This document shows positions 25,608 to 52,299 of a stretch of DNA of 64,000 bases, one piece after another. The stretch comes from Bacillota bacterium (lineage in GTDB: Bacteria > Bacillota > Dethiobacteria > DTU022). Each line of letters begins with the position of its first letter. Position 1 is the stretch's first letter. Below the pieces are notes generated by a model. That model saw only the letters and a list, made by a program, of their open reading frames with translations, searched no databases and had not been told where the DNA came from. The DNA lies in assembly GCA_019428945.1 (NCBI GenBank), contig JAHYJM010000005.1, forward strand, positions 1,562-65,561. The letters are read 5' to 3'. A program made the translations under genes and the position numbers.

Positions 25608-26933
25608 ATGGGCAGCGCGGTCTTTAAAGGAGGCGTTCATCCGGACTATCATAAAGAGATAACAGCGACTATGGCTGTATCGAAGATGAAAGCCCCTTCT
25701 ACAGTAGTAATTCCTCTGCAACAGCATATTGGCGCACCCTGTGAACCTCTCGAAGGAATCGAAGAAGGTGTCCGAGTTAAAATGGGGCAAAAAATTGCCG
25801 ACAGTAGTGGTTTTGTTTCCGCTCCCATCCATGCAAGTGTATCGGGTACAATTAAAGCCATCGGCCCGTACAATCATCCCCTCGGACGTCCGGTTAATGC
25901 GATTACGATTGAGTCGGATGGACAGGAAGAGTGGGATGAGAAAGTTAAACCGGCAGGTAATCTGGAGAACCTTACCCCGGATGATCTACGCAAAATCATT
26001 CGTGAAGCCGGAATTGTCGGCTTGGGCGGAGCCACCTTCCCGGCTCATGTCAAGTTGTCGCCACCACCGGAGAAAAAAATTGATTATGTAGTTATCAACG
26101 GCGCTGAGTGTGAACCGTACCTGACAGCGGATCACCGGGTTATGCTTGAAAATCCTGAAGAAATAATCTTCGGTCTAAAAGTGATGATCAAAGCGTTGGG
26201 TGCCGAGAAAGGCGTGATCGGTATTGAAGACAATAAAGCCGATGCAATCAGGGTTATGGAGCAGGCAGTTGCCGGTGAAGATAACATAACAGTAGCCCAT
26301 TTGCATACCAAATACCCCCAGGGCGCTGAAAAAATGCTGATCCAGGTTACAACCGGGCGTATAGTACCTTCCGGCGGCCTTCCTCTTGATATAGGTGTTG
26401 TAAACCATAACGTGGGGACAGCCGTTGCCATAACAAGCACTATACGCGAAGGTAAGCCTTTAATTGAAAGAGTTGTTACAGTTACAGGTTCTGGAATCAA
26501 TAAACCGGCAAATCTTCTGGTAAAGGTGGGAACACTGGTTTCAGAAGTGCTTGATGTCTGCGGTGGTTTAAAGGAAGATACCAGAAAGCTGATCACTGGC
26601 GGCCCGATGATGGGTCTGGCCCAGCCAAATACTGATATTCCGGTGATTAAAGGTACCTCCGGAATTCTCGCCCTGACCGACCAGGATGTATATATTGCAG
26701 AAAGCAGTCCCTGTATCCGCTGTGCCAAATGTGTGGAGGCTTGTCCGGTTCAACTGCTGCCTACATCTATAGCGCAGGCAGCCGAGCATGACCTGTTTAA
26801 AAAAGCCGAAAAACTCCATGCCATGGATTGTTTTGAGTGTGGCTGCTGTTCATATGTTTGTCCTTCAAAAATACCTTTAACTCAGTTAATAAGAATTGCC
26901 AAAGCGGAAATAGCGAAAGCGAATAAAAAGTAG
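25608..26933 (+). CDS. rnfC: Rnf complex subunit C (NADH-binding, 2x[4Fe-4S])
   Basis: GGVHPDYHKE N-terminus and the C-terminal ferredoxin motifs CIRCAKCVEACP, CFECGCCSYVCP. Confidence 0.9.
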   Translation: MGSAVFKGGVHPDYHKEITATMAVSKMKAPSTVVIPLQQHIGAPCEPLEGIEEGVRVKMGQKIADSSGFVSAPIHASVSGTIKAIGPYNHPLGRPVNAITIESDGQEEWDEKVKPAGNLENLTPDDLRKIIREAGIVGLGGATFPAHVKLSPPPEKKIDYVVINGAECEPYLTADHRVMLENPEEIIFGLKVMIKALGAEKGVIGIEDNKADAIRVMEQAVAGEDNITVAHLHTKYPQGAEKMLIQVTTGRIVPSGGLPLDIGVVNHNVGTAVAITSTIREGKPLIERVVTVTGSGINKPANLLVKVGTLVSEVLDVCGGLKEDTRKLITGGPMMGLAQPNTDIPVIKGTSGILALTDQDVYIAESSPCIRCAKCVEACPVQLLPTSIAQAAEHDLFKKAEKLHAMDCFECGCCSYVCPSKIPLTQLIRIAKAEIAKANKK

Positions 26934-26964
26934 CCTGCTTTGCAAGGGAGGGAAGTGATAGATA

Positions 26965-27930
26965 ATGGATAACAAAATGGTAGTTTCATCTTCTCCGCAT
27001 ATCAGGAGCCTTGAATCAGTTCAAAGTGTTATGATTGATGTTCTGATAGCCTTGTTTCCCGCTGCCCTGATGGCAGTGCTCCTATTTGGATACAAGGCTT
27101 TGATAACCATGATTATATCTGTGGTAACAGCAATGCTTGTAGAAGCTCTTTGGTTACGGAAGCGTGATATATTTAGCGACGGCAGCGCCGCAGTCACAGG
27201 CCTTCTGTTCGCCATGGTTCTGCCGCCAGCACCGCCGTGGTGGCTGGTAGTTGTAGGTGTGGCCTCGGCGATTATAATCGGCAAACAGGTTTTCGGCGGT
27301 ATCGGTTACAATATCTTTAACCCTGCCCTGGTTGGCAGAGCGGTTGTTGTAATGTCCTGGGGTGGTTATCTGGTTGGGCGAGTATGGTCGCAGCCGCAGC
27401 CTTTTGCCTTAACGGCAGATATTTCTGCTATAACTACGGCGACTCCGCTCGGAGGGCAGGAAGAAGCTCTCGCGGTTAGCCTGACAAACCTCTTTATAGG
27501 CAATGTGGCCGGATGCCTCGGTGAAACATCAACCCTGGCGCTTCTGCTCGGCGCTGCATGGCTCTATTACAAGGGGCATATCGATCTGCGTATACCCGGG
27601 GGATTTATTGGTGTCGTATTCATAATGGGCGCTATCTTCGGTGGAGGTTTTTACGGTGGAGCTCTGACAACAGGTCTTTTCCATGTATTGGCGGGAGGCG
27701 TAATGCTTGGTGCGCTATTCATGGCTACCGACATGGTTACAACGCCAGTTACAGCCAAGGGCAAATTAATATTTGGTATTGGTTGCGGAATTATTACAAT
27801 GATGATCAGGTTGTGGGGCACCTTGCCTGAAGGTGTTACCTTTGCCATATTATTAATGAATGCTGTAACCCCGATTATCGATAACTTTACAGTGCCACAA
27901 CAGTTTGGGGGGGTGAAGAAGAGTGCGTAA
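26965..27930 (+). CDS. rnfD: Rnf complex subunit D (NqrB-like membrane subunit)
   Basis: SSPHIRS N-terminus, polytopic membrane protein, and the flavinylation-region motif TGATPLG-like. Confidence 0.9.
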   Translation: MDNKMVVSSSPHIRSLESVQSVMIDVLIALFPAALMAVLLFGYKALITMIISVVTAMLVEALWLRKRDIFSDGSAAVTGLLFAMVLPPAPPWWLVVVGVASAIIIGKQVFGGIGYNIFNPALVGRAVVVMSWGGYLVGRVWSQPQPFALTADISAITTATPLGGQEEALAVSLTNLFIGNVAGCLGETSTLALLLGAAWLYYKGHIDLRIPGGFIGVVFIMGAIFGGGFYGGALTTGLFHVLAGGVMLGALFMATDMVTTPVTAKGKLIFGIGCGIITMMIRLWGTLPEGVTFAILLMNAVTPIIDNFTVPQQFGGVKKSA

Positions 27931-29071
27931 TATTATAAAACTGTCTGTTACTCTTGCTGTAGTCGGTATTATATCTGCCGCTCTTCTGACCGGTGTGTAT
28001 AATGTTACCGCTCCGATCATTGCCGAACGGCAGGAAGCGGAATACAGGCAAGCCCTGGAACTTTATTTTCCCGGCTTCGCCAGCTATGACAGCGAAGAAA
28101 TTGGCGATGATTACTTTGATTTAATCTACGATGGTTCTGATGAACTGATTGGCATTATGGGCACGATTGAGCAGCAGGGTTATGATGGAACGATAACTTA
28201 TAACCTGGCCATGGACGATTCGGGTTCAATAATCGGAGTCAGGGTTGTATCCCACTCTGAAACTCCGGGTATCGGTGACGTAATCACCACTGAAGTTTTT
28301 CAGGAACAGTTTTTCGGTAAGAACTATGAAGATCCTATCGTAGCCGGCGATGATGTTAATGCAATTACCGGCGCTACAGTCAGCAGTTCTGCAATGATAA
28401 ATTCAATCAGGCGGGTTAGCGGAGTGGTTGCGGAGAACTTCCTGGGCGTTGAATCAGTTGCGATTGATATCTCTGAAGTACCGGATGGAACTTACCAGGG
28501 ATCAGCTCCCGGCCTTGGCGGCGAATTGACTGTTGAGGTTGAGGTTTCCGATGGAGTAATTGTCAGTATTGAGGTTATTGAACACAATGAAACGCCTACT
28601 TATTTTATTGAAGCATACCCCTTTATACCTGAACAGATTATTGCTGAACAGCATTTTGATATAGATACCCAAACAGGCGCTACCATCAGTTCTGAAGCAA
28701 TAATCGAGGCTGTTCAGAATGCCCTTCGTGAGGCTCTCGGCATCGAGGTCGGAGAAGAACCGGAAGAAGAGCCTGTTGATATAAATATCAGCGAAATCCC
28801 CGACGGAATCTACGTCGGCAGTGGTGAAGGTTTTTATGGTCCGATTACTGTTGAAGTCGAAGTTGCGGGTGGGCAGATAGTCAGTATAGTGATAACCGGG
28901 CAGGATGAAACTCCGGAATATTTCAGGGAGTCGAATCCGCTGATTCCGGAACGGATAATTGAGGAACAAAGTCTTGATATCGATACAAGCACCGGAGCAA
29001 CTTTTAGCGCCAAAGGTATTGTGCAGGCTGTTCTAAACGCTCTGGACAGTGAAAGTGGAGGTGAAGACTGA
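27923..29071 (+). CDS. rnfG: Rnf complex subunit G with three FMN-binding (FMN_bind) domains
   Basis: N-terminal membrane anchor plus an RnfG core ending in the flavinylation motif NAITGATVSS. Two additional ~100-aa repeats follow, each with T[QS]TGAT[IF]S. The protein is 382 aa against a typical ~200 aa. Confidence 0.85.
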   Translation: MRNIIKLSVTLAVVGIISAALLTGVYNVTAPIIAERQEAEYRQALELYFPGFASYDSEEIGDDYFDLIYDGSDELIGIMGTIEQQGYDGTITYNLAMDDSGSIIGVRVVSHSETPGIGDVITTEVFQEQFFGKNYEDPIVAGDDVNAITGATVSSSAMINSIRRVSGVVAENFLGVESVAIDISEVPDGTYQGSAPGLGGELTVEVEVSDGVIVSIEVIEHNETPTYFIEAYPFIPEQIIAEQHFDIDTQTGATISSEAIIEAVQNALREALGIEVGEEPEEEPVDINISEIPDGIYVGSGEGFYGPITVEVEVAGGQIVSIVITGQDETPEYFRESNPLIPERIIEEQSLDIDTSTGATFSAKGIVQAVLNALDSESGGED

Positions 29072-29702
29072 TATGAAAGCAACTAGTCCTTATATGCAGG
29101 ACCTCACCCGGGGTATAATTAAAGAGAATCCGGTCTTTATTGCCCTGCTGGGTATGTGCCCCACACTCGGGGTCACAGCATTTATTGTTAACGGTGTCGG
29201 TATGGGGCTTGCGGCAACAGCTGTATTAATTGCTTCTAACCTGGTAATTTCCCTGTTGCGCAACTTTATACCCCCACAGGTGCGCATACCCTGCTTTATC
29301 GTGATTATCGCCACTTTTGTTACTATAATTGAAATGGTCCTGCAGGCTTTTCAACCTGTATTGTACGAAGCACTTGGCGTGTTTGTACCGTTAATTGTCG
29401 TTAACTGTATCATTTTGGGCAGAGCTGAAGCATTTGCCAGCAAAAGGCCGGTAATACGATCTCTATTAGATGGCATTGGCATGGGGATCGGATTTACCCT
29501 TGCCCTTTTTATTTTAGCAGCAGTACGTGAAATACTCGGTCATGGAACTATTCTTGGCCCCGACCCGGATAGCGCCATCCATCTTTTTGGGGCAAATTTT
29601 GAACCGATGGCTCTTTTTGCTCAGCCTGCAGGTGCGTTCATTGCCCTGGGGCTACTTCTGGCCATTGTGAATTTGCTCTTTAAGCGCTTTAACATTAATT
29701 AG
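29049..29702 (+). CDS. rnfE: Rnf complex subunit E
   Basis: NqrD/RnfE-type sequence (ENPVFIALLGMCPTLGV). The real start is probably ATG 29073. Confidence 0.9.
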   Translation: MKVEVKTDMKATSPYMQDLTRGIIKENPVFIALLGMCPTLGVTAFIVNGVGMGLAATAVLIASNLVISLLRNFIPPQVRIPCFIVIIATFVTIIEMVLQAFQPVLYEALGVFVPLIVVNCIILGRAEAFASKRPVIRSLLDGIGMGIGFTLALFILAAVREILGHGTILGPDPDSAIHLFGANFEPMALFAQPAGAFIALGLLLAIVNLLFKRFNIN

Positions 29703-29746
29703 GTGAATCAGACTGATATGTCTGTTAGCCTGGGCAGGAGGATAAT

Positions 29747-30328
29747 ATGGAAAAGCTGCTTTCAATTATATTTATCTATATTTTTGTAGAAAACTTTGTT
29801 TTGCAGCGATTTTTCGGGATCTGTCCGTTTTTAGGTGTTTCCCGGAAAATGGAAACTGCAATCGGGATGAGCATGGCGGTTGTATTTGTCATGACTATTG
29901 CTACACTTGTGACCTGGTTGCTCTATAATTTTATTTTGGTTCCATTTAACCTGACTTACCTTCAGATAGTAACCTTTATCTTGGTTATAGCGTCGCTGGT
30001 TCAACTTGTAGAGATAGTGCTGCGGAAGATCAGCCCCACTCTTTACCAGGGTTTGGGGATCTTTTTACCGCTAATAACCACCAACTGTGCGGTAATGGCA
30101 GTTGCTCTCCTGGCAGTAAGGCAGGAGTTTTCCCTGTTAGAAGCGGTCGTGTTTGCCATCGCTGCATCTATAGGTTTCTCTTTGGCCCTTATTATTATGG
30201 CCGGAATCAGGGAACGACTCGAATTAGCCAAGATGCCCGATGTATTACAGGGATCTGCAGTGACGTTGGTTACTGCCGGTATATTGTCACTGGCATTTTT
30301 AGGGTTTAAGGGAATGTTGACTTTATAG
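29747..30328 (+). CDS. rnfA: Rnf complex subunit A
   Basis: NqrE/RnfA-type sequence, 193 aa, six transmembrane helices. Confidence 0.9.
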   Translation: MEKLLSIIFIYIFVENFVLQRFFGICPFLGVSRKMETAIGMSMAVVFVMTIATLVTWLLYNFILVPFNLTYLQIVTFILVIASLVQLVEIVLRKISPTLYQGLGIFLPLITTNCAVMAVALLAVRQEFSLLEAVVFAIAASIGFSLALIIMAGIRERLELAKMPDVLQGSAVTLVTAGILSLAFLGFKGMLTL

Positions 30329-30365
30329 AGACATTCTTTGATATAATTTACTATTCTTATGCGAG

Positions 30366-31232
30366 GTGAATTTAACCGTGCTAATAATATATGCAATAGC
30401 TGCATTAGGTGTAATCGGCCTCCTCTTTGGTCTTTTCCTCGGTGTGGCAGCCCGTTTTTTTGCAGTAGACACCGACCCGCGTGTTGAAGCCGTAAAAGAG
30501 GAATTACCGGGAGCTAACTGCGGCGCCTGTGGTTATGCCGGGTGTGCAAACTTTGCTGAAGCAGTAGTAAGCGGTGAAGCAAAAGTCAATGGCTGTATCC
30601 CGGGAGGAGATGAAACCTCTAAAGCAATTGCAGGCTTATTGGGACAGGAAGTCGGAAGTTCTGTTCAGCCGGTGGCTACTGTCTTTTGCATCGGGGACAG
30701 CTTCAAAACCAGTGATAAGTTTATTTATGACGGTGTAGCTGATTGTGAGGTGGCTGGTAACTTCCTTGGTGGATTTAAAACATGCAGTTATGGTTGCCTG
30801 GGATATGGCAACTGTGTGAAAGCCTGTCTATTTGATGCAATAAAAATGGGTGAGCACGGACTGCCTGTTGTTGATACAGAGAAATGTACCGGCTGCGGGT
30901 TATGCGCAAATGCCTGCCCGAGAACTATCATTAAGATGCTTCCCAGGGGCGATAGCGGCTATCTGGTTCTGTGCAACTCACATGATCGGGGTAAGTCAGT
31001 ATCCAAAGCCTGTGAAGTCGGCTGTATAGCCTGCAAGGCATGTGTGAAGGTTTGCCCGGAAGAGGCTATAGTGATGGAGGATAATCTGGCCGTGATAGAT
31101 CTGGAAAAATGCACCGACTGCGGCAAGTGCGCCGAAAAATGCCCTCCTGTGACGATATACAGGCGCAACGCCATTCCTACGGAGGCGCAGGCGCTTGCCT
31201 ATGCCGCGGAAAAATCAGCAGAGTCGGCCTAG
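30366..31232 (+). CDS. rnfB: Rnf complex subunit B (polyferredoxin)
   Basis: N-terminal anchor plus multiple Cys clusters (CTGCGLCANACP, CIACKACVKVCP, CTDCGKCAEKCP). Confidence 0.9.
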   Translation: MNLTVLIIYAIAALGVIGLLFGLFLGVAARFFAVDTDPRVEAVKEELPGANCGACGYAGCANFAEAVVSGEAKVNGCIPGGDETSKAIAGLLGQEVGSSVQPVATVFCIGDSFKTSDKFIYDGVADCEVAGNFLGGFKTCSYGCLGYGNCVKACLFDAIKMGEHGLPVVDTEKCTGCGLCANACPRTIIKMLPRGDSGYLVLCNSHDRGKSVSKACEVGCIACKACVKVCPEEAIVMEDNLAVIDLEKCTDCGKCAEKCPPVTIYRRNAIPTEAQALAYAAEKSAESA

Positions 31233-31351
31233 TTCGGATCTGTCTTTTACGGCAGGATTTAGTTTAGGCCTTTGCTGAAGCAATAACAACTGTTACAGGC
31301 AGGTTTTGAGCGATCATAAACCGAATTTGTAACATGCAGACAAGATAATGA

Positions 31352-31402
31352 CTGAAGCGGGATCAAGTTCAAAATGTGATCTATTCCCGCTTCAGCTTTA
31401 TT
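31352..31402 (+). terminator. Candidate intrinsic terminator/attenuator between rnfB and the antiporter module
   Basis: CTGAAGCGGGA / TCCCGCTTCAG is an 11-bp stem with a 22-nt loop, followed by CTTTATT. Confidence 0.4.
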
Positions 31403-31485
31403 GGGAGTCGTCTACAGTAATAATGGCATTAGGAAAGAATTATCTCTCAAATCTCCTGATTCTAACTACCGAGGTGGAGATAAAC

Positions 31486-31977
31486 ATGAACAGGCAGTGG
31501 TTAAACTACATTGGTATAACACTAATTCTATTGGTTTTCTGGATAGCTGTTAGTGGCTCCCTTAGTTGGCCGCAGCTTGTCGTTGGCCTGGCAACGGCTA
31601 TCTTTGTAACTTATTTTAATCGTAATTTACTGATCACTGCTGAAGAAAGACCGCCAATTCGGCTGCGAACTATAATCTGGTTATTTGGTTATCTTTTTCA
31701 GCTGCTTTGGGCGATTGTGATTGCTAATTTTCATGTGGCCTGGATAGTAATGCATCCTAAAATGCCGATTGAGCCAAACCTTGTCTCGCTGGAGGTTGAT
31801 ATCGATAGAGTATCGAGTCGTGTATTGCTTGCAAATTCCATTACCCTTACTCCCGGAACACTGACAGTACTTGCCGATGAAAAGAAATTTCTTGTTCATG
31901 CCCTGACAGTTTCAAGCGGAGAAGATCTTAAAGAATGGAGTTTAATTGACCGAATCAGGGAAATGGAGGAGGCCTGA
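31486..31977 (+). CDS. mrpE: Mrp/Mbh-type antiporter small subunit E (MnhE/MbhA-like)
   Basis: ATG 31486 with RBS GAGGTGGAG. The membrane N-terminus plus a soluble C-terminus is typical of MnhE. It is the first gene of a run in MbhA-H-like order. Confidence 0.7.
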   Translation: MNRQWLNYIGITLILLVFWIAVSGSLSWPQLVVGLATAIFVTYFNRNLLITAEERPPIRLRTIIWLFGYLFQLLWAIVIANFHVAWIVMHPKMPIEPNLVSLEVDIDRVSSRVLLANSITLTPGTLTVLADEKKFLVHALTVSSGEDLKEWSLIDRIREMEEA

Positions 31978-31979
31978 TC

Positions 31980-32261
31980 ATGAATATCTCTCAGATCCTT
32001 GATTTTTCGTACAACCTGGGCGCTATTCTGGTCATGCTGATGATCTTTCTTTCGCTGATCAGGGCGTTAAAAGGGCCGACTGCTCCTGACAGGGTTGCGG
32101 CAATCAATATCATCGGCACAAAAACTGTTGTTATTATTACCCTGATTGCCCGGATCTATGAACAGATTTACTTTTTGGATGTAGCTATGGTTTATGCCCT
32201 GATGAGCTTTATTACTACTGTAGGTGTGGCCAAATACCTTGAGAAGGGAGCTCTTGACTGA
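31980..32261 (+). CDS. mrpF: Mrp/Mbh-type antiporter subunit F (MnhF)
   Basis: 93 aa, three transmembrane helices, MnhF-like. Confidence 0.7.
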   Translation: MNISQILDFSYNLGAILVMLMIFLSLIRALKGPTAPDRVAAINIIGTKTVVIITLIARIYEQIYFLDVAMVYALMSFITTVGVAKYLEKGALD

Positions 32262-32592
32262 TATTAATCACCTGATAGAACCATTATTTGATTTAATATC
32301 ACTGATCAGCCTGATCGGGGGTCTCTTTTTTCTCTTTGTAGGAACGGTAGGGCTCCTGAGACTTCCTGATGTTTTTAACAGGCTGCATGCTACAACCAAA
32401 TGCGATACTTTAGGGGCAGGGTTGGTTCTTCTCTCTCTTGCTGTGCAGAGCACCCCTGCGACTGGTATAAGGCTTGCCCTGATTATTATTTTTATAATCG
32501 TTACTAACCCGACGGCAGCACATGTTATAGCGCGGGCAGCATATAAAACAGGTATTAAACCGCTTACCGGCAGGAGGTTATCTGATGACTGA
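32224..32592 (+). CDS. mrpG: Mrp/Mbh-type antiporter subunit G (MnhG)
   Basis: The MnhG-like sequence includes LRLPDVFNRLHATTKCDTLGAG. The start is probably TTG ~32254. Confidence 0.7.
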   Translation: MWPNTLRRELLTDINHLIEPLFDLISLISLIGGLFFLFVGTVGLLRLPDVFNRLHATTKCDTLGAGLVLLSLAVQSTPATGIRLALIIIFIIVTNPTAAHVIARAAYKTGIKPLTGRRLSDD

Positions 32593-32824
32593 TATTCTAA
32601 ATATACTCCTCCTTTTATTTTTGATCGTATGTGCCGTTGGTGTCGCTCATATTCGAGACCTGCTAAGCGCGGTAATCCTCTTTTCTGCTTTCGGTTTAAT
32701 AATGGCTATAATTTGGCAGCAGCTCGGCGCTCCCGACATTGCCATGGTTGAAGCTGCTCTCGGAACCGGTGTGGCAGCGCTTCTGCTTATTGCTGCGATA
32801 AGCAAAACTAAGCGCGCTGAATAA
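32585..32824 (+). CDS. Small membrane subunit, DUF4040/MbhD-like (MnhB N-terminal-half homologue)
   Basis: 79 aa, two to three transmembrane helices. Its position after G matches MbhD in Mbh/Mbx-type operons. Confidence 0.5.
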   Translation: MTDILNILLLLFLIVCAVGVAHIRDLLSAVILFSAFGLIMAIIWQQLGAPDIAMVEAALGTGVAALLLIAAISKTKRAE

Positions 32825-32847
32825 CTTTAAGCCGGGAGGTAACCTGA

Positions 32848-33192
32848 ATGTCCTACATCCTTATACTATTTTTAGTCATACTGGCTATATTTTTACGTTT
32901 TGTGATAGGGGTAGAGCTGAGAAGCATCCTGACCATATACCTTCTTGGTTTAATTGTGTACCTCTTTAGCTTTACTGTGGCAGAGATGCCTCCCTTTGGC
33001 AGACCTGATAATCCGGCTTTCAATGAAGTTCCTGCTCGCTATCTTGAAGCAGGCCCCTCCGAAACAGGGGCAATTAATATTATAAGCAGCGTAATTACAG
33101 ATTACAGGGCTTTTGACACCCTTGGTGAAGCGACTGTTCTTTTTGTGGCTATAGCTGCTGCCGTTGCAACTCTCAAATCGCACCGATATTAA
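32848..33192 (+). CDS. MnhB-domain small membrane subunit (MbhE-like)
   Basis: The ITDYRAFDTLGE motif is characteristic of MnhB-related domains. Confidence 0.6.
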   Translation: MSYILILFLVILAIFLRFVIGVELRSILTIYLLGLIVYLFSFTVAEMPPFGRPDNPAFNEVPARYLEAGPSETGAINIISSVITDYRAFDTLGEATVLFVAIAAAVATLKSHRY

Positions 33193-33201
33193 AAGGGGGA
33201 G

Positions 33202-33660
33202 ATGATGTTGGAAGATCAAATTGTCCGGATAACCAGCCGACTGGTAGCCCCTTTTATTCAGGTTTACGGTATATATGTTATTCTGCATGGACACCTCTCG
33301 CCCGGTGGTGGTTTTTCAGGCGGGGCAATTTTCGGAGCAAGCCTGGTTTTAATTGCGCTTTCATTTAATCTTGAAGCCGGGGTAAAACAGATATCACACC
33401 AGACAGCATCTGTTTTAGAGAGCGGCGGCGCTCTCGGTTTTACTGTAACCGGCCTGATTGCGATCGCGCTCGGGGGTAATTATCTTGCGAACCGTGCGGC
33501 CGGTTTTCCACTCGGTGAAGCAGGACAGTTTTTCAGTTCAGGAGCAATTATGGTTATAACTGTTTTTGTCGGGATTAAAGTTGCAAGTACCATTACAACT
33601 CTTTTTTACAATATTATTGAGAAGGAGACCCCTCATGGAAACAGTAAGCAGGCTGACTGA
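33202..33660 (+). CDS. MnhB/MrpB-like membrane subunit (MbhF-like)
   Basis: HGHLSPGGGFSGGAIFG is the MrpB-core signature. Confidence 0.6.
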   Translation: MMLEDQIVRITSRLVAPFIQVYGIYVILHGHLSPGGGFSGGAIFGASLVLIALSFNLEAGVKQISHQTASVLESGGALGFTVTGLIAIALGGNYLANRAAGFPLGEAGQFFSSGAIMVITVFVGIKVASTITTLFYNIIEKETPHGNSKQAD

Positions 33661-34003
33661 AAACTATTTTTATCTCGTGGCGATTATTTTATTCGTGATA
33701 GGTACCCACACTATGCTTACTCATTCCAACATGATCAAAAAAGTCATTGCTATGAATATCATGGATAGTTCAGTTTTCCTGCTCTTTGTTGCCATCGGTT
33801 ACACTCACGGCGCTCAAGCCCCTATCATCAGAGATGGTGCTGATATAGTCTATGCGAATCCGCTTCCCGGAGCGCTGATTGTTACCGGTATAGTTGTGGC
33901 TGTCAGTGTAACGGCTTATGCACTGAGCATCATTGTCAAAATCCAGAGAAGTTACGGAACCATTGATTGTGATGAAATTTGTGAGTTAAGGAGCGATGAT
34001 TAG
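33635..34003 (+). CDS. mrpC: Mrp/Mbh antiporter subunit C (NuoK-like)
   Basis: ATG 33635 with RBS GAGAAGGAGA. The NuoK/MnhC-like sequence includes MNIMDSSVFLLFVAIGY. Confidence 0.7.
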   Translation: METVSRLTENYFYLVAIILFVIGTHTMLTHSNMIKKVIAMNIMDSSVFLLFVAIGYTHGAQAPIIRDGADIVYANPLPGALIVTGIVVAVSVTAYALSIIVKIQRSYGTIDCDEICELRSDD

Positions 34004-35481
34004 TGGAGTCTGCCGGCCATCAACCGGTCTTAATTATAGTAACACTTCTAATAAGCGCTTTTCTTTCCCCGCTACTTTACCGGTGGAGGAAATTTCTGTC
34101 TGGAATGGTTCTGCTGGCAGCTTTGACAGGAGCTTTTGTTACTGCGCTTACACTTCTCGGTCAGGTAGCCCGCTCCGGCGAGCTCTCATACTACCTGGGC
34201 AACTGGCCTCCTCCCTGGGGGATTGAGCTGGTAATAGATCCACTGCGTGTATATATGCTTCTTGTTGTTACAGGAGTAAGTCTTTGGATTTTTGTTTATG
34301 CACTGCGTGATCTTGAGCATGAACTTCATCATGATGTGATAGGCTGGTATTATTCACTGTATGCTTTGCTTGTTGCTTCTATGTCAGCTATGACCCTGAC
34401 TAATGATTTATTTAACCTTTTTGTCCTGATGGAGATATGTGCAATTTCTGCCTGCGCCATTATTACTATTAAAGACAAGCGGGAATGTTTAGAGGCCGGT
34501 TTTAAATATTTGATCATGAGCGCCATGGGTACGGGCTGTTTTTTACTTGGGGTTGCAATGATTTATATGGTAACAGGCTATCTTAATTTCTCTTTTATTC
34601 AAACAGGACTGGCTGCTGCCCTGTCTGAATATCCTTTAAATATTTTTACAGCCGCAGCACTTTTTATAGTTGCTTTCGGCACTAAAGCAGCTCTCTTTCC
34701 TTTACATGTCTGGCTGCCCGATGCTCATGCTTCTGCTCCATCGCCTTCCAGCGCAATGCTGTCGGGATTGGTTATAAAAATTTATGCCTTTGCTCTTTTT
34801 ATGATATTTTACAGAGTATTCCCCCGCTCGTTGCTTGATGCCATTCCGCTGAATGAAATCATACTCTGGCTTGGCGCGATGGGAGTTATGTTTGGTTCCA
34901 TTTATGCTATGCTGCAGACTGATCTGAAAAAAATGCTTGCATACTCAAGCATTGGGCAGATTGCCTTCATTTTTATGGGCATTGGCCTCGATCAACCACT
35001 GGCTTTGACTGGAGGCCTTTACCATATTATGGTTCATGCTTTTACCAAGTCAATGCTGTTTATGTCAGCCGGTGCGATAATCTATTCTACAGGTGTTCGC
35101 CGCATCAGCGATCTGGCTGGAATTGGAAGAGTATTGCCCATTCCACTGCTGGCGTTTACCATAGGCAGCGCTTCGATGATTGGGCTGCCCGGAACAGGCG
35201 GATTAATAAGCAAATGGTACCTGGCCCTGGGGGCACTAGAAACGGGGCGAATCTTTTTTTTACTGGTTATTCTGGCCAGCAGCCTGCTTAATGCGATCTA
35301 TTACATGCCTATAGTGATCAATGCTTTTATGAGCGGAGATGAGTTTAAAGAAAAAGTAAAAACTGTACCTCCTTCGATGCAGGCCACCCTGGTTGTGGGT
35401 ATTTTGCTTGTAGTGATCAGCGGGATATTTTCCCGACAGATAATTGTTCTATTCGAACAGGCTTTAACATCTTTATATTAA
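34003..35481 (+). CDS. mrpD: Mrp/Mbh antiporter-like large subunit D (NuoN/NuoM family)
   Basis: 492 aa. Antiporter-module motifs are present (LFPLHVWLPDAHASAPSPSSAMLSG). Confidence 0.8.
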   Translation: MESAGHQPVLIIVTLLISAFLSPLLYRWRKFLSGMVLLAALTGAFVTALTLLGQVARSGELSYYLGNWPPPWGIELVIDPLRVYMLLVVTGVSLWIFVYALRDLEHELHHDVIGWYYSLYALLVASMSAMTLTNDLFNLFVLMEICAISACAIITIKDKRECLEAGFKYLIMSAMGTGCFLLGVAMIYMVTGYLNFSFIQTGLAAALSEYPLNIFTAAALFIVAFGTKAALFPLHVWLPDAHASAPSPSSAMLSGLVIKIYAFALFMIFYRVFPRSLLDAIPLNEIILWLGAMGVMFGSIYAMLQTDLKKMLAYSSIGQIAFIFMGIGLDQPLALTGGLYHIMVHAFTKSMLFMSAGAIIYSTGVRRISDLAGIGRVLPIPLLAFTIGSASMIGLPGTGGLISKWYLALGALETGRIFFLLVILASSLLNAIYYMPIVINAFMSGDEFKEKVKTVPPSMQATLVVGILLVVISGIFSRQIIVLFEQALTSLY

Positions 35482-35552
35482 GCAACTATAATATCCGTAT
35501 TTTAGTTGAAATATTCAGGTAATAACCATATAATAAGCTATAACGTGTTAAG

Positions 35553-37088
35553 TTGGGAGTGGTGGTATTGGATCAAGCATCAATCATCATAATCATGGTA
35601 GTAATTGTTGCATTGCCTGTTGTTATGACTCCGGTTCTTATGTATATCTGCCGCATTTCCGACCGATTGCGCAACGGCCTTGCCATTTTAACCGCGGCGG
35701 CAACTTTTATTCTCACCTTATTGCTATATCCCTTCATCCGGGACGGGGGAGTAGTTCAGCAGAGTTTGTTTGAAATTCTGCCTAACCTTGAAATATCAAT
35801 TCATCTCGATATTCTAAGCTTTAGCCTTGCAGCTTTGGCCTCATTCATATGGTTGCTTTGTACCATTTATTCTATTGACTATATGGCCAAGGAGCATGCC
35901 TGCAGCAGATATTATCCGGTCCTTATTTTTACTTTGGGTGCCTGCCAGGGAATATTCTTTGCCGGGGATCTTTTCAGTCTTTTTGTATTCTTTGAACTCA
36001 TGTCTATTATTGCCTATATCCTGATTATTCATGAGCAGACCGAGGAAGCCCTGAAAGCCGGGTATAAATACTTGGTGATGACTATTATCGGCGGTTTGGC
36101 GCTGTTCTTTGGAATTATTATTGTTTTTGAAATCGGCGGCACCGTTTCTCTCGGTGTGGGTGTTATAATCGGTGAACCTTCATTACTGGCCCTAATTGCT
36201 TTTATCTGTTTTCTGATTGGTTTTGGGATGAAGGCCGGAATGTTTCCCTTACATGTCTGGCTGCCTGATGCACACCCTGTTGCTCCCTCGCCGGCCAGCG
36301 CACTGCTTTCCGGAGTGATGCTTAAAACAGGCGCCTACGGTTTAATTCGGGTTGTATTTCATGTCTATTCTGTTGATCTTCTCAGAAGCAGTGGTTGGAA
36401 TAATATCCTGGCGATTCTTGCTGTTATAACCATACTGCTTGGTTCGGCCGTAGCCCTCACGCAGACTGATATAAAACGCCGTCTTGCATATTCCAGTATC
36501 AGCCAGCTCGGTTATGTTTTGCTTGGGCTGAGTATTTTAAACAACAATGCCCTTACAGGAGCAGTCTTTCATATTTTCAGCCACGCTTTTATGAAGAGCG
36601 CACTCTTCCTTGCAGCAGGGGCAATAATATGGAAAACAGGAATTCGCAACATTAATGATATGAAAGGCCTGGGCAGGTTAATGCCCGTTACCATGGGCAG
36701 TTTTTCGTTAGCCGCTCTGGCCATGATCGGTATTCCGCCTCTGAACGGGTTCCTTAGCAAGTGGACCCTTGCCCTTGGCGCTCTTGATGCAGGTATGCCT
36801 GGGTATGTTATGGTTCTTTTAATAAGCAGCCTGCTTAATGCTCTTTACTATCTGCCCATAATAATTCCGGCTTTCTTTGAATCACCTGAAGGCGAAGAGA
36901 TTAATGATCATGGGGATGAGGGAAGCCATGAAGTCTTGTTTAAAATCAAGGAAGCGACTCCGTTGATGCTTTCGGCAATAGTTATTCTTGCCCTCTGTAC
37001 AATATTCTTTGGATTAACGCCAAACAATATTATCTTTTCTTTATCGCGCCTCACGGCCCTGTTTTTACTGGGGGGAGGGTCCTTCTAA
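35553..37088 (+). CDS. Second antiporter-like large subunit (NuoM/MrpD family)
   Basis: 511 aa. Paralogous motifs are present (MFPLHVWLPDAHPVAPSPASALLSG). Confidence 0.8.
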   Translation: MGVVVLDQASIIIIMVVIVALPVVMTPVLMYICRISDRLRNGLAILTAAATFILTLLLYPFIRDGGVVQQSLFEILPNLEISIHLDILSFSLAALASFIWLLCTIYSIDYMAKEHACSRYYPVLIFTLGACQGIFFAGDLFSLFVFFELMSIIAYILIIHEQTEEALKAGYKYLVMTIIGGLALFFGIIIVFEIGGTVSLGVGVIIGEPSLLALIAFICFLIGFGMKAGMFPLHVWLPDAHPVAPSPASALLSGVMLKTGAYGLIRVVFHVYSVDLLRSSGWNNILAILAVITILLGSAVALTQTDIKRRLAYSSISQLGYVLLGLSILNNNALTGAVFHIFSHAFMKSALFLAAGAIIWKTGIRNINDMKGLGRLMPVTMGSFSLAALAMIGIPPLNGFLSKWTLALGALDAGMPGYVMVLLISSLLNALYYLPIIIPAFFESPEGEEINDHGDEGSHEVLFKIKEATPLMLSAIVILALCTIFFGLTPNNIIFSLSRLTALFLLGGGSF

Positions 37089-39368
37089 TTGTTTGCTGCC
37101 GCTCCGGAACTACTTTCCGACCTGAGCCGGGTATACTATTCTTCCCTGCCGCTATGGATTACACTGCTGCCGCTATTAACCGGTATCGGGCTCTATTTTG
37201 TTAAAAACAGCGCGGAGACTCTCCGTAAGGTTGTTTCTTTGCTGGCCTCGCTTGCTGTACTGGTCGGAGTGATGCTGTTATTGCCGATGGTATTGTCAGG
37301 GACAGTTAAGTATGATCTGATCGATTTTATGCAAATGGGTCTATTTTTTGAAGTTGACCTGGTTGGCTGGATTTTTGCTTTTCTGATAGCCTTTATCTGG
37401 TCTTTAGCCACGCTGTTTTCATTTGCCTATATGGATTTCGAGCACAATAGACGCCGCTATTACAGTGTATTGATTTTTACGCTCGGAGCTACCCTGGGCG
37501 TGGTTCTAGCCGGTGACTTTTTTACACTTTTCCTGTTCTTTGAAATGATGACTCTTTCATCCTTTATTCTGGTTATTCATGAACAGAATCGCGAGGCTAT
37601 GCAGGCAGGTATTCTGTACCTTTATCTCGGTATAGCCGGAGGCCTGGCGCTGCTTTTTGCCATCATGATGCTTTATTCAGCCACGGGAACTGTAAATATA
37701 GTGCCTGTGCTGGAAGACCTGGGCGCCAATCGAACCTTAATTTATATCATGTTTTTGATTGGCTTTGGAGTTAAAGCCGGACTTGTTCCGCTGCACATCT
37801 GGCTGCCTCAGGCTCATCCTGTTGCTCCTTCCCCGGCAAGCGCACTTCTTTCCGGTATAATGATCAAAGCCGGCGCTTACGGTATTTTTAGAGTATCTCT
37901 TATACTCTTTACCTCACCTGGCGAAATCGGTGCAGCAGATGCTTCATACCTTTTTAATGTAGGATCTGTATTGATGTGGATTGGTATCATCACCATGCTG
38001 TCCGGAGCGATAATGGCCCTTCTGCAGAGCAATATGAAAAGGATCCTGGCTTACAGCAGCGTCAGCCAGATCGGTTATATCGCAACCGGGCTTGGCGCTG
38101 CAGTCTTTATGGGCACTGAAGGCGCAATGGGATTTGCCGGTGCCATCTATCACATAATTAATCATGCTTTTTTCAAGGCAGGTCTCTTTATGATGGTTGG
38201 TACAATTTATCTCTATACGCATGAACTGGAATTGTCTAAGCTTGGTGGTATGTTTAAAAAAATGCCCCTGGTTGGTATCACATTTATTATTGCAGCCTTC
38301 GGTATTGCCGGTATTCCGGGCTTTAACGGATATCCCAGCAAAACTCTGATCCATGATGCTTTACTGATTGCCATTAAATTTAATGATCTTTTTAGCATTG
38401 AACTGGCTGAAAAAATATTTACGCTAACCAGCGCACTGACAATCTGCTACTTTATTAAGCTTTTCAGAGGGGTATTCTTAGGACCTGTTCCTGAAAAGCT
38501 CGATCGTGAATATAAACTGGCCCTGTCAATAAAGGCGGTATTAACCACATTTGCAGCGATCATTGTTGCTATTGGCTTATTCCCGAATTTTATTCTTGAA
38601 CGTTTTCTGGTACCTCCTGCCGAGTTTTTAAAATATGAAGGTTATGCCATGGATCATCTTTATCACTTCAATTTTTTTGAATGGCATCCTGTCGAAGCAA
38701 TGCTTGTTGTTATTATTCTGGCAGTGGTCATTTATTTGCCGGGAGCTTATCGAAACTGGTTTTCCTGGCAGCCGCCCCCCTGGCTCAGTATTTACGCTCT
38801 CCTTTACCGGCCCCTGACACATCGTCTCATGATTCTCACCTGTAAAGCCGGGCTAATTCTTGACTCGTCGGTTGATAATGCTTACAATCAATCAGGCAGT
38901 GCAGCACGGAATATGTGTGATTATGTGGGCAACATCGATCATGGTCTGGACAGTTTTTATCATAAGTGGGGGTTGATCGGCAGTAAGTTGGCGGAACGTT
39001 CCAGAGATATGGATCAGAAACTGGACGGTTTCTATCAAAGATCAGGTCAAGCAGCCAGGAAGCTTGCCGATAAATCAGCTGATATGGACTCAGCTCTAGA
39101 TAAAGCATATCAGAAAACCGGAAAAGCCGCTCAGAATTTAGCTAAACAGTCATCAGATCTTGATAAAGCGATAAATGTCGTATATGATCAGGCCGGTAAA
39201 AAAACCAGGGATGAAGTGGAAAAGCGGCTGGCAGGGAAACAAGAAAAACATGATAAAGCAGAGAGTGATAAATGGAGCACCAAGAATTTGAGTTTTGATA
39301 ATCTGCTTCTTGTCCTTGTTCTCGGTATAGTACTTTTTATTATCTTCTACTTCGGGAGATCATCATAA
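37089..39368 (+). CDS. mrpA: Antiporter-like large subunit (NuoL/MrpA family) with a ~190-aa C-terminal repeat extension and terminal transmembrane anchor
   Basis: 759 aa. The core is LVPLHIWLPQAHPVAPSPASALLSG. The tail holds 5 tandem ~25-aa repeats of the form [FAV]Y[QHD]xxGxxAxxLAxxSxDxDxxL, followed by the hydrophobic LLLVLVLGIVLFIIFYF. Confidence 0.8.
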   Translation: MFAAAPELLSDLSRVYYSSLPLWITLLPLLTGIGLYFVKNSAETLRKVVSLLASLAVLVGVMLLLPMVLSGTVKYDLIDFMQMGLFFEVDLVGWIFAFLIAFIWSLATLFSFAYMDFEHNRRRYYSVLIFTLGATLGVVLAGDFFTLFLFFEMMTLSSFILVIHEQNREAMQAGILYLYLGIAGGLALLFAIMMLYSATGTVNIVPVLEDLGANRTLIYIMFLIGFGVKAGLVPLHIWLPQAHPVAPSPASALLSGIMIKAGAYGIFRVSLILFTSPGEIGAADASYLFNVGSVLMWIGIITMLSGAIMALLQSNMKRILAYSSVSQIGYIATGLGAAVFMGTEGAMGFAGAIYHIINHAFFKAGLFMMVGTIYLYTHELELSKLGGMFKKMPLVGITFIIAAFGIAGIPGFNGYPSKTLIHDALLIAIKFNDLFSIELAEKIFTLTSALTICYFIKLFRGVFLGPVPEKLDREYKLALSIKAVLTTFAAIIVAIGLFPNFILERFLVPPAEFLKYEGYAMDHLYHFNFFEWHPVEAMLVVIILAVVIYLPGAYRNWFSWQPPPWLSIYALLYRPLTHRLMILTCKAGLILDSSVDNAYNQSGSAARNMCDYVGNIDHGLDSFYHKWGLIGSKLAERSRDMDQKLDGFYQRSGQAARKLADKSADMDSALDKAYQKTGKAAQNLAKQSSDLDKAINVVYDQAGKKTRDEVEKRLAGKQEKHDKAESDKWSTKNLSFDNLLLVLVLGIVLFIIFYFGRSS
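38876..39240 (+). repeat. Five diverged tandem 75-nt (25-codon) coding repeats in the mrpA-like C-terminal region
   Basis: At DNA level, GATATGGATCAGAAACTGGACGGTTTCTATCAAAGATCAGG resembles GATATGGACTCAGCTCTAGATAAAGCATATCAGAAAACCGG. At protein level, the matching repeats are FYQRSGQAARKLADKSADMD and AYQKTGKAAQNLAKQSSDLD. Confidence 0.6.
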
Positions 39369-39383
39369 AAGGAGCTGCAATTA

Positions 39384-40454
39384 TTGGAGCAGGGAGAAGA
39401 GAAAATCAGTCCTTCAAAAAGCATTTTAAAACGGATAATTACTGATCCAAAATATATATTTCTTCTATTTACTTTTATTATTGTGATAATAATTCTGGTT
39501 TATCGCAGCCCGGCTGCAGGGCAGATGGTCACTTATCAGCGGGTTATGATGGACACCGCAGTTGAACTGCGGTTTGAAACTGCTCCGGGAAGTGCGGCAG
39601 ATGCAATTGCAGAAAGTGTATTTACCGAAATTGAACGGCTTGAAAAGTTGTTTAGCCGGAGCCTGCCTGAGAGTGATGTGAGCAGAGTTAATTTTCAGGC
39701 CGGAGTAAGTTCAGTGCCAGTCAGTAGTGATGTTCTCCATGTTACAGAAAAGGCTTTACATTATGGAGAGATCAGCGGGGGGGCTTTTGATCCAACGATA
39801 GCGCCCCTGATTGATTTATGGGGCTTTTTTGGCCAGGATTACCGGCTGCCTGCGAAAGATGAGATAGAGGCTGTTCTGCCTCTTGTTGATTATCGTTTAC
39901 TGGCTGTTGACAGAAACAACTCTGAATTATTTTTACCTGATCGTGACATGGCTCTCGAACTCGGGGGTATCGCCAAAGGATATATTGTCGGCAGAAGTTT
40001 GGAGATCCTTAAAGAATCCGGCATTTCCAGCGCTTTCGTCAATGCCGGTGGTGACATAGGGTTGATCGGTTTACGCCCCGATGGCACGTCGTGGCGAATT
40101 GGTATTCGCCATCCCCGGGACGCTAATAAGGTGATCGCAGTTATTCCGGCAGAAGGCGGAGCAGTTGTTACATCCGGTGATTACGAGAGAACATTTGAGG
40201 TTTCAGGTGTCAACTACCATCATATCCTGGATCCTCAAAATGGTATGCCTGCTGTACTTTTAACAAGCGTTACTATTGTTGCAGACACTGCCATTGCTGC
40301 TGATGCTCTTTCTACGACAATTTTTGTACTCGGGCCGGATCAGGGACTGGCCTTAATTGAACAGCTGTCTGGTGTGGAAGGTGTCTTAATCACGCCCGAT
40401 CTCGAAATTATAGTTTCAAGCGGTCTGGTAGATATCATTGAACTGCATCCATAA
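39384..40454 (+). CDS. apbE: FAD:protein FMN transferase (ApbE family), membrane-anchored
   Basis: ApbE motifs AFDPTIAPLIDLWGF and GGIAKGY, with an N-terminal signal anchor. It is the flavinylation enzyme for RnfG/RnfD-type FMN_bind domains. Confidence 0.85.
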   Translation: MEQGEEKISPSKSILKRIITDPKYIFLLFTFIIVIIILVYRSPAAGQMVTYQRVMMDTAVELRFETAPGSAADAIAESVFTEIERLEKLFSRSLPESDVSRVNFQAGVSSVPVSSDVLHVTEKALHYGEISGGAFDPTIAPLIDLWGFFGQDYRLPAKDEIEAVLPLVDYRLLAVDRNNSELFLPDRDMALELGGIAKGYIVGRSLEILKESGISSAFVNAGGDIGLIGLRPDGTSWRIGIRHPRDANKVIAVIPAEGGAVVTSGDYERTFEVSGVNYHHILDPQNGMPAVLLTSVTIVADTAIAADALSTTIFVLGPDQGLALIEQLSGVEGVLITPDLEIIVSSGLVDIIELHP

Positions 40455-40492: not shown

Positions 40493-41056
40493 ATGTCCGA
40501 TACAAGGATAACTTTGCGCAGTCGCCTGAATTACCTGACATATCTGGCAGTGCTGATTACATTTGCCGTGGTTATTCACACTGTTGAGGCGGCGCTTCCC
40601 TTACCAATGCCGGTACCGGGCGTAAGGCTTGGCCTGGCTAATATTATTACATTGCTTACGCTGGTTTTATTTGGCCTGAAGAGCGGACTTCTGGTTTCTA
40701 TGACACGTTCAGTGCTTGGCAGTATATTTGTTGGCGGGCTTTTCGGTTTTGGCTTCTGGCTCAGTTTTAGCGCCGGTATCGTGAGCTGTCTGGCTATGGC
40801 CATGGTCCTGCAGCTTCAGAAGAGAGGCCTGGTCAGCCTTATTTCGGTCAGTGTAATCGGAGCAGCTACTCATAATATAACTCAGTTGGCTCTGGCAAGT
40901 GTGATTATTGCAAATGCAACACTATTTACCGGTTATTATCCTTTTCTGCTGCTCCTGTCTGTCCCTACCGGTCTTTTTACAGGCCTTGCTGCATATTACC
41001 TTGAGGGTGTGACCAGGAGAATGATTAAACAAAGCGGCACGGGGGTCTTTAAATGA
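40493..41056 (+). CDS. Gx-transporter / heptaprenyl-diphosphate-synthase-component-I-like (PF07456-type) polytopic membrane protein
   Basis: 187 aa with ~5 transmembrane helices, Gly-rich. It is immediately downstream of apbE, a recurrent neighbourhood for this family. Confidence 0.5.
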   Translation: MSDTRITLRSRLNYLTYLAVLITFAVVIHTVEAALPLPMPVPGVRLGLANIITLLTLVLFGLKSGLLVSMTRSVLGSIFVGGLFGFGFWLSFSAGIVSCLAMAMVLQLQKRGLVSLISVSVIGAATHNITQLALASVIIANATLFTGYYPFLLLLSVPTGLFTGLAAYYLEGVTRRMIKQSGTGVFK

Positions 41057-49440: not shown

Positions 49441-49570
49441 AGATGGTCGTGGCATACAACCACGAGAGCCTTCTTTCCGCAACGGGAGGCACAGCTGTTT
49501 CCGGCCGTACCCCAGCCTGCTATTCATGACGCTGCAAGATCGCTTTAGAATGAACAGGTCGAAGGTAAAA
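49441..49570 (-). ncRNA. Structured 5'-leader element E1 directly abutting the tupA RBS; candidate Moco/Tuco-class riboswitch (translation-control type)
   Basis: Shares the conserved blocks CCTTCTTTCCGCAACGGGAGGC, GTTTCC and GATCGAAGG with E2 and E3. It is followed on the minus strand by AAGAGGAGAG (RBS) and the tupA ATG. Confidence 0.45.
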
Positions 49571-49621
49571 CTTTTAGAAATGCTTTATTCCTTAACACTT
49601 CACCCCCCTTGTTTGGTCAAC

Positions 49622-49795
49622 AAAAAAAATCGCAGTTTCCCATGGGTAAGTGCGATTTTAATAACTTTCCTTGATCCTTCTTTCCGCAATGGGAGGCCCG
49701 GCCGTTTCCAGCTAAACCCTGTCGTCCACCTTTCGTAGCAACATGTAGTGCTTTAGATACAGTGGATCGAAGGTTATTATTTAATTGTTAGCAAG
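49622..49795 (-). ncRNA. Structured element E2 with intrinsic-terminator expression platform; candidate Moco/Tuco-class riboswitch (transcription-termination type), in tandem upstream of E1/tupA
   Basis: ~85% identical to E3 over ~150 nt. The minus-strand hairpin ATCGCA..TGCGAT (49629-49656) is followed by U8. Confidence 0.45.
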
Positions 49796-52200: not shown

Positions 52201-52299
52201 TTGATTGTTAACTACACTATGCATTTTATAACAAATATCTTAATTGGTCAAGAAAATTGATCAATATTACTTTGTTTTGGGTAGTTTTTTTGGGTTTGT

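Follow-up and report, generated by a model that had tools for sequence, protein, structure and literature searches.

A conserved rnf-mrp-apbE gene block in Bacillota: probably two separate membrane complexes in one ion circuit

Introduction

This study deals with a gene block at positions 25608-40454 of a 64,000-nucleotide stretch of contig JAHYJM010000005.1 (assembly GCA_019428945.1, Bacillota bacterium; the whole stretch is called the window below), in which rnfCDGEAB, ten genes of an Mrp-type antiporter module and apbE follow each other. The rnf-mrp-apbE layout as such was already noted in passing by Sorokin et al. (2020; PMC8359318), who described it for Natranaerofaba carboxydovora ANCO1 (Natranaerobiales) as linking H+ and Na+ gradients and serving pH homeostasis. 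Like the window, this genome carries in the ACONDI_00389-00396 region rnfCDGEAB, mnhEFG-mbhD-mbhE-mnhB-mnhC-mrpD-L and apbE-PF07456-...maf...radC-mreB. However, moaC stands there between rnfB and mnhE and is missing from the window, a single MrpD gives two antiporter-like subunits where the window has two MrpD and three such subunits, RnfG has two instead of three flavin mononucleotide (FMN) domains, and the large subunits are 41% identical. Candidatus Contubernalis alkaliaceticus (Dethiobacteria) also encodes Rnf (HUE98_01685-01710) and an antiporter (HUE98_01720-01765; PMC10608574), and to judge from its locus tags alone it resembles the window in having six rnf genes, one intervening gene and ten antiporter genes, all numbered consecutively. 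The adjacency remained uncommented in that paper, which inferred a Na+ ATP synthase from a Na+-type c subunit and also called the ten genes 'putative membrane part of NADH:quinone oxidoreductase' (PMC10608574).

In Methanosarcina acetivorans rnf and mrp co-occur in non-adjacent clusters, and mrp is strongly induced by acetate, with transcript levels similar in range to those of the rnf cluster, which is abundantly expressed (PMC2838876). This organism pairs a Na+-pumping Rnf with Mrp, as we propose here for the window, but its Mrp belongs to group 1 (mrpABCDEFG), and it is an archaeal methanogen and no alkaliphile. Beyond these papers we found no literature dealing explicitly with adjacency or coupling of Rnf and Mrp.

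Among solved structures, the membrane arms of Mbh (6CFW) and Mbs (6U8Y) from Pyrococcus furiosus have the same A-H order as the window module, and MbsH' shares with the terminal window subunit, here called L, a helical C-terminal extension past the antiporter-like domain. In contrast to Mbh and Mbs, the window has no MbhM/NuoH-like protein, no MbhI and neither MbhJKLN nor MbsJKLN, while it possesses an extra MrpD and an extension built of five 25-residue repeats. The canonical Mrp antiporters of Bacillus pseudofirmus (7QRU), Anoxybacillus (6Z16) and Dietzia (7D3U) have their seven functional parts and their charged residues in common with the window. Compared to canonical group 1 and group 2 Mrp, however, the window module starts with E and not with A, its MrpA is distributed over three genes and its MrpD is duplicated, and its subunits are less similar to canonical Mrp than to Mbh/Mbs.

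We propose, with a probability of about 0.6, that the block encodes two separate membrane complexes which lie side by side in one ion circuit, probably expressed from two or three transcription units, and that the block was inherited within a clade of alkaliphilic, anaerobic Bacillota, of which it is a signature. In agreement with this, N. carboxydovora and 15 loci of soda-lake and serpentinite metagenome-assembled genomes (MAGs) carry the same block. The source organism of the window seems to be an anaerobic alkaliphile from the Dethiobacteria/Natranaerobiales radiation.

Type of the antiporter module

All 17 genes from rnfC to apbE were found by Pfam to lie contiguously on the + strand, as had been stated in an earlier reading of this DNA from its letters alone (the sequence-only reading). 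Its coordinates for the block and its order and count of genes stood, but the starts of three genes had to be moved, to 31486 for mnhE, 33635 for mnhC and probably 35568 for mrpD2. The ten genes of the antiporter module are:

31486-31977, + strand: mnhE, mbhA-like, 163 amino acids (aa); Pfam MNHE; best PDB matches MbsA (6u8y_A, 1e-21) and MbhA (6cfw_A)
31980-32261, + strand: mrpF, mbhB-like, 93 aa; Pfam MrpF_PhaF
32224-32592 (start uncertain), + strand: mnhG, mbhC-like; Pfam PhaG_MnhG_YufB; NCBIfam NF009314 and TIGR01300 above their cut-offs
32585-32824, + strand: mbhD-like (DUF4040), 79 aa; Pfam MbhD; best PDB match 6cfw_D
32848-33192, + strand: mbhE-like, 114 aa; Pfam MbhE (PF20501)
33202-33660, + strand: mnhB, mbhF-like, 152 aa; Pfam MnhB; NCBIfam NF006248 above its cut-off; best PDB matches MbsE and MbhF
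33635-34003, + strand: mnhC, mbhG/NuoK-like, 122 aa; Pfam Oxidored_q2; NCBIfam subunit C models
34003-35481, + strand: mrpD-1 (D1), 492 aa; Pfam Proton_antipo_M; best PDB matches MbsH (2e-58) and MbhH (3e-56)
35568-37088, + strand: mrpD-2 (D2), ~506 aa; Pfam Proton_antipo_M (1.8e-72); best PDB match MbhH (6.5e-68)
37089-39368, + strand: L, the terminal NuoL/MbsH'/MrpA-N-like subunit, 759 aa; Proton_antipo_M; best PDB matches MbhH (5.7e-60) and MbsH' (1e-48)

The ATG of mnhE at 31486 is preceded by the Shine-Dalgarno sequence GAGGTGGAG and the ATG of mnhC at 33635 by AAGGAG, while for mrpD2 a Shine-Dalgarno sequence and start codon conserved in the alignment make TTG 35568 the most likely start.

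Pfam and NCBIfam identified all parts of an Mrp antiporter of the CPA3 family, namely A-N, A-C, B, C, D, E, F and G, together with an extra MrpD. What is one MrpA protein in canonical antiporters is divided here among L, MbhD and MbhE, and in NCBIfam alignments the MbhD-like protein represents the first half (MrpA residues ~620-687) and the MbhE-like protein the second half (~710-775) of the canonical MrpA C-terminal domain, while MnhB aligns with MrpB. Since the ten genes supply every canonical part, they would encode a complete stand-alone cation/proton antiporter with a split MrpA and an Mbh/Mbs-like architecture. The order E F G A-C(1) A-C(2) B C D D A-N is neither that of group 1 (mrpABCDEFG) nor that of group 2 (mrpA'CDEFG). 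The module is a complete Mrp that fits only the 'group 3/irregular', anaerobe-type class in the scheme of Ito et al. (2017; PMC5703873), which is typical of anaerobes. The same type of module was annotated as MrpEFGBBBCD + MrpDD in an NPL-UPA2 MAG (PMC6305446). Most NCBIfam equivalog cut-offs were not reached across the module, and none was by the large subunits D1, D2 and L.

The sequence-only reading had likened the gene order to MbhA-H and not to mrpABCDEFG, and its remark holds at the sequence level too. For all six subunits tested (E, MbhD, B, D1, D2 and L) the best match to a solved structure was P. furiosus Mbh (6CFW) or Mbs (6U8Y), and the Mrp structures of Bacillus, Anoxybacillus and Dietzia scored below them in each case. 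All three antiporter-like subunits that had been counted from the letters keep their conserved Glu, Lys and His residues: the Glu of transmembrane helix (TM) 5, the Lys of TM7, TM8 and TM12 and the His/His/Lys motif are found in D1, D2 and L alike, and the same charged residues are invariant across 13 homologues of L.

In line with the claim that no catalytic hydrogenase module follows, neither NuoB/D/H/I nor [NiFe] subunits were found in the cluster or among the ~50 annotated open reading frames (ORFs) of the window, a set from which about a dozen ORFs of at least 150 aa, mainly at 6.4-9.4, 46.8-52, 54.4-57.4 and 61.8-63.9 kb, were left out. Within the same scope there is also no NuoH-like coupling subunit (MbhM) and no MbhJKLN redox module. 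Therefore, the module is not an Mbh/Mbs-type enzyme, although its membrane part has the MbhA-H order. Of complex I, NuoA/H/J and the Q- and N-modules are absent, and only NuoK-like and NuoL/M/N-like proteins are present.

Rnf genes and flavinylation

The antiporter module is preceded by the six Rnf genes and followed by two genes that touch on flavinylation:

25608-26933, + strand: rnfC, 441 aa; Pfam RnfC_N, Complex1_51K, SLBB and Fer4
26965-27930, + strand: rnfD, 321 aa; Pfam NQR2_RnfD_RnfE (1.6e-106)
27923-29071, + strand: rnfG, 382 aa, unusually long; three tandem Pfam FMN_bind domains
29049-29702, + strand: rnfE, 217 aa; Pfam Rnf-Nqr (2.7e-67)
29747-30328, + strand: rnfA, 193 aa; Pfam Rnf-Nqr (2.2e-57)
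30366-31232, + strand: rnfB, 288 aa, full length; Pfam FeS and several Fer4
39384-40454, + strand: apbE, FMN transferase, 356 aa; Pfam ApbE (1.9e-87); starts 15 nt after L
40493-41056, + strand: 'hep', Pfam PF07456 (Hpre_diP_synt_I) membrane protein, with weak similarity to S-components of energy-coupling factor transporters

With C, D, G, E, A and B clustered and all matched (Pfam E values from 1e-15 to 1e-106), the set of Rnf subunits is complete. RnfG contains three intact flavinylation motifs (D..[ST]GAT) near residues 146, 257 and 353, one in each FMN_bind domain, and these motifs and ApbE occur within the same block, as expected for an Rnf with covalently bound FMN. ApbE and the PF07456 protein would mature the covalently flavinylated Rnf subunits, and RnfG would require three FMNs. 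Among the relatives that carry rnf and mrp, RnfG has one to four FMN_bind domains. A three-domain RnfG resembles multi-flavin extracytoplasmic electron-transfer proteins.

Conservation and origin of the linkage

To follow the linkage, one genome per GTDB species was scanned, which yielded 79 loci (designated by L and a number below), and these were mapped with the window proteins. Of the 44 loci with a readable upstream region, 15 are credibly linked to rnf and 29 are not, an RnfE match of 25% identity in L042 having been discounted. The full rnf-mrp-apbE sandwich was found in L003-L012 and L020, MAGs from soda lakes that carry the label Syntrophomonadaceae or Bacillota and whose L is 52-76% identical. 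L015, L017 and L070, which are more distant (40-44%) and come from MAGs of Samail/CROMO-type serpentinite and other origin, have it too. The adjacency of rnf and mrp is kept across Dethiobacteria and Natranaerobiales, even where L is ~40% and the Rnf subunits are ~50% identical. In the distant members L002, L015, L017 and L070, moaC is located between rnfB and mnhE. L013, a close relative of L017, consists of moaC-mrp-apbE-hep-maf-radC with no rnf upstream. In two further loci of related MAGs, L038 (3176-13057) and L064 (3046-12968), rnfCDGEA, a gene for an RnfB of 98 aa, D2 and L are followed by NusG_II-PF07456-maf-radC. The short RnfB comprises a TM segment and the FeS domain and is devoid of ferredoxin-like domains, RnfG of both loci has four FMN_bind domains, and neither small Mrp subunits nor apbE are present in the locus.

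The PF07456 gene adjoins apbE or FMN_bind genes in L002, L013, L015, L016, L064 and L070. In the Symbiobacterium MAG L016 (2053-8291), D2-D2-L is followed by a FAD_binding_2 flavoprotein reductase, the PF07456 protein and a protein with three FMN_bind domains, so that another Mrp-type module stands here beside genes of extracytoplasmic flavinylation.

Modules of the type E-F-G-MbhD-MbhE-B-C-D-(D)-L are found without rnf in Actinomycetota, Izemoplasmatales, Elusimicrobia, Alkaliphilus, Anoxynatronum, a Methanosarcinales MAG and others. They are flanked by unrelated genes, among them those for metallo-beta-lactamase, chorismate synthase, fasciclin, VTT, ABC binding protein and diacylglycerol kinase. 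The sole exception is L072, in which a molybdopterin oxidoreductase gene lies directly upstream of a related module. Since modules of the same type stand beside unrelated genes elsewhere, they can function without a redox partner.

Candidate Rnf genes at some of these modules did not hold. The apparent rnfC and rnfD of Anoxynatronum (L037) were rejected as an independent link, because the matches belong to a molybdopterin-oxidoreductase cluster that is separated from mrp by dCTP deaminase, CBS and uncharacterised genes. Matches to RnfE, RnfC or RnfG in L042, L072, L050 and L075 were too weak, at 23-37% identity, to be taken as Rnf.

In a neighbour-joining tree of all large subunits, which is distance-based and has no support values, D1, D2 and L of the rnf-linked loci fall in one clade. 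The tree contained no references of Mrp group 1/2, Mbh or Mbs, so that bit scores against PDB structures served as a proxy for the affiliation of the large subunits, with Mbh and Mbs as the nearest solved structures. As the rnf-linked loci form one clade, the linkage probably arose once and not by recurrent selection. The block probably descends from one ancestral rnf-moaC-mrp-apbE-hep-maf-radC arrangement.

Transcription units

Two elements of regulatory appearance are located within the block:

31352-31402 (arms 31352-31363 and 31384-31395), + strand: terminator-like hairpin with an interrupted T tract, free energy -21.1 kcal/mol, CTTTATTGG
35506-35534, + strand: promoter-like element TTGAAA-17-TATAAT with 11/12 consensus matches, in the AT-rich gap between mrpD1 and mrpD2 (35482-35567)

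The hairpin does not lie inside a gene, since the mnhE start at ATG 31486 puts it into an intergenic gap of 253 nt between rnfB and mnhE. A scan of the whole window at the Rfam gathering threshold gave no match in this gap, and no sigma-70-like site was found in it. We rejected the hairpin arm as a dispersed repeat, as only the two arms themselves match well in the window, and the gap as a decayed moaC, for which tblastn gave no signal. Gap lengths among close relatives lie between 16 and 254 nt, without conservation of the sequence. Strong T-tailed hairpins nevertheless recur 3' of rnfB, with -21 kcal/mol in the window, -24 in L002, -22 in L011, -20 in L012 and -19.5 in L070, and TTGACA-17-TA(C/A)ACT precedes moaC-mrp in L015 and L070. 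In L004, L005, L007 and L020 the gap has 16-78 nt and no hairpin. Expression of mnhE to D1 in the window probably depends on read-through.

At the position of the second element, the same -35 and -10 hexamers occur in 9 of the 11 sequences of the alignment (window, L003-L005, L007-L009, L011 and L012), the flanks of which diverge, and a conserved Shine-Dalgarno sequence and a TTG, CTG or GTG start codon follow on its 3' side. By this conservation, the element is probably an internal promoter for mrpD2-L-apbE-hep-maf-radC. If real, it would allow apbE to be expressed without reading the whole block. The hairpins after rnfB in several lineages and the promoter-like element before mrpD2 make two or three transcription units probable, which would be rnfCDGEAB, then mnhE to mrpD1, reached by transcription through a leaky hairpin, and finally mrpD2-L-apbE-hep and what follows, starting at the internal promoter.

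C-terminal tail of subunit L

L is composed of an antiporter domain (aa ~20-515), repeats (aa 591-715) and a single C-terminal TM anchor (aa 736-758). The tail contains five tandem repeats of 25 residues (nt 38859-39233) with the consensus LDxAYxKSGxxARxLAxxSxDxD. Autocorrelation peaks at lags of 25 and 50 were obtained for L of the window and for 10/10 homologues with a tail long enough, and the copy number of the repeat among L orthologues ranges from 0 to about 6-8. AlphaFold2 predicted helices at 568-656 and 666-728 besides the TM helix at 736-758, with a confidence (pLDDT) of 34-57 in the tail and below 50 over much of it, so that a strut and a folded bundle cannot be told apart from the model. 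As a period of 25 corresponds to about seven helical turns, each repeat would present the same face. In this predicted form the tail agrees with a NuoL-HL-type lateral helix of amphipathic character, and such a repeat-built helix probably clamps the row of subunits. A ruler model with one repeat per subunit was rejected, since the repeat number is not tied to the count of antiporter-like subunits among the loci.

The number of L-like copies is plastic. L010 (7819-14169) has D1, D2 and three L-like paralogues of 677-688 aa, L020 (6884-11046) has two L-like subunits, and Dethiobacter alkaliphilus (L001, 10001-12349) carries an orphan L gene without Mrp neighbours.

Relation between Rnf and the antiporter

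As two complexes in one circuit, Rnf and the antiporter would share the work as follows. Rnf, as ferredoxin:NAD+ oxidoreductase, would be the primary electrogenic pump, presumably for Na+, as argued for its relatives. The Mrp complex, presumably without physical contact to Rnf, would spend the membrane potential made by Rnf and probably take H+ in and move Na+ out. The import of H+ would acidify the cytoplasm, and the Na+ and H+ gradients would be interconverted. Two points weigh against this proposal. The adjacency has one origin in a very stable backbone and could be due to inertia rather than to selection, and L038 and L064, which keep only D2-L beside rnf with its rnfB of 98 aa, are explained poorly by an independent antiporter.

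The first of these points leads to the alternative that survives best, although we consider it unlikely. Here, no specific tie exists at all: a general housekeeping antiporter for pH and Na+ entered the space between rnfB and apbE a single time, is regulated independently and was kept by a backbone that rarely rearranges. The single clade of linked loci, the 29 of 44 modules of the same type with unrelated flanks and no rnf, and L013 with its moaC-mrp-apbE but no rnf are in agreement with this, as are the terminator-like hairpins 3' of rnfB and the promoters ahead of moaC-mrp. The block is set between valS and folC upstream and the genes for the PF07456 protein, Maf and RadC downstream, and the annotated parts of the window represent a housekeeping backbone of Bacillota with tig, clpX, lon, valS, folC, RNase G, obg and leuS. 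As this valS-folC...maf-radC backbone is strongly syntenic, rearrangement is slowed by itself, which weakens the sandwich as an argument for coupling. The sequence-only reading had suggested an Rnf-coupled module from the sandwich, and the arrangement proved to be conserved, but it probably goes back to one linkage event. What had been named as speaking against coupling, independent regulation at a fully efficient terminator or a place among ordinary group-2 Mrp antiporters that commonly neighbour unrelated genes, was partly found, in the unrelated flanks, in the hairpins and moaC-mrp promoters and in L013. Mere inheritance of the neighbourhood, on the other hand, does not readily account for an adjacency kept to such low identities over Dethiobacteria and Natranaerobiales, nor for the 16-58 nt, hairpin-free gap between rnfB and mnhE in several close relatives. 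Furthermore, apbE, which is needed by Rnf, is embedded 3' of mrp, and the carriers all come from alkaline habitats, where both functions are physiologically interdependent.

The second point leads to the alternative that Rnf joins with the Mrp-type module, or minimally with mrpD2-L, in one supercomplex, in which it would be the redox input in analogy to Mbh, Mbs or complex I. L038 and L064, in which D2 and L lie directly 3' of the truncated RnfB in a locus without small Mrp subunits, argue for it, and so does the type of the module, an Mbh/Mbs-type arm that docks to redox modules in archaea. D2 and L would moreover be a separately promoted pair together with apbE, and the repeat-built helix of L is unusually long and variable in length. 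Nevertheless, such a supercomplex is quite improbable. The cluster has neither a coupling subunit of the NuoH/MbhM type nor MbhI, all Rnf subunits but RnfG have ordinary lengths, the module is complete as an Mrp and common without Rnf, and terminators and promoters divide the units in several lineages. To our knowledge, no solved Rnf structure contains antiporter-like subunits. More improbable still is the specific version that the arm, or minimally mrpD2-L, docks on Rnf in place of the hydrogenase or sulfane-reductase module, with L038 and L064 as the minimal form. If true, physical coupling of Rnf to the arm would constitute a new class of respiratory complex, but the present evidence is not in favour.

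That the ten genes supply the membrane part of some other redox enzyme, with for example a soluble module of the NuoEF, hydrogenase or formate dehydrogenase type encoded elsewhere, would suit the NADH:quinone oxidoreductase label used in PMC10608574 and the molybdopterin oxidoreductase gene of L072, but is the least credible explanation, since no NuoH/A/J-type or Q-module genes occur in the cluster or the annotated ORFs of the window, the Mrp-specific E, F, G and B are all present, and the neighbours of most related modules are unrelated.

Other features of the window

Upstream of leuS a Leu T-box leader with the specifier CUC was detected by Rfam (57441-57734, + strand, 111.8 bits). Between Stem III and the antiterminator it carries an insertion of 98 nt, where the Rfam model has 15 nt, and the insertion is a complete tRNA-Ala(GGC) gene at 57608-57682 (Rfam, 66.9 bits; ARAGORN). 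A tRNA gene inside a T-box riboswitch leader is unusual. Three aptamers of the molybdenum/tungsten cofactor (Moco) riboswitch, two of them in tandem, lie within 2.8 kb on the - strand (49454-49576, 49661-49784 and 52078-52201), and a gene for aldehyde:ferredoxin oxidoreductase was found at 13055-14851.

Significance

As the layout itself had been noted before, the more original by-products of this analysis are the internal promoter-like element, the predicted repeat-built lateral helix, the multi-FMN RnfG and the tRNA-Ala nested in the leuS T-box leader. Among bacteria the 'archaeal' Mbh/Mbs-type arm is widely distributed in the form of an independent antiporter, and this bears on models for the assembly of complex-I-like enzymes from Mrp modules.

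Alkaliphilic fermenters, acetogens and syntrophs lack a respiratory chain and need a membrane potential as well as a cytoplasm more acidic than their surroundings of pH 10-12. For such organisms, a locus that packs the only primary pump (Rnf), an Mrp antiporter and the maturation enzyme of Rnf would be a compact genetic signature of the alkaliphilic lifestyle, of which N. carboxydovora and Ca. Contubernalis are cultured carriers.

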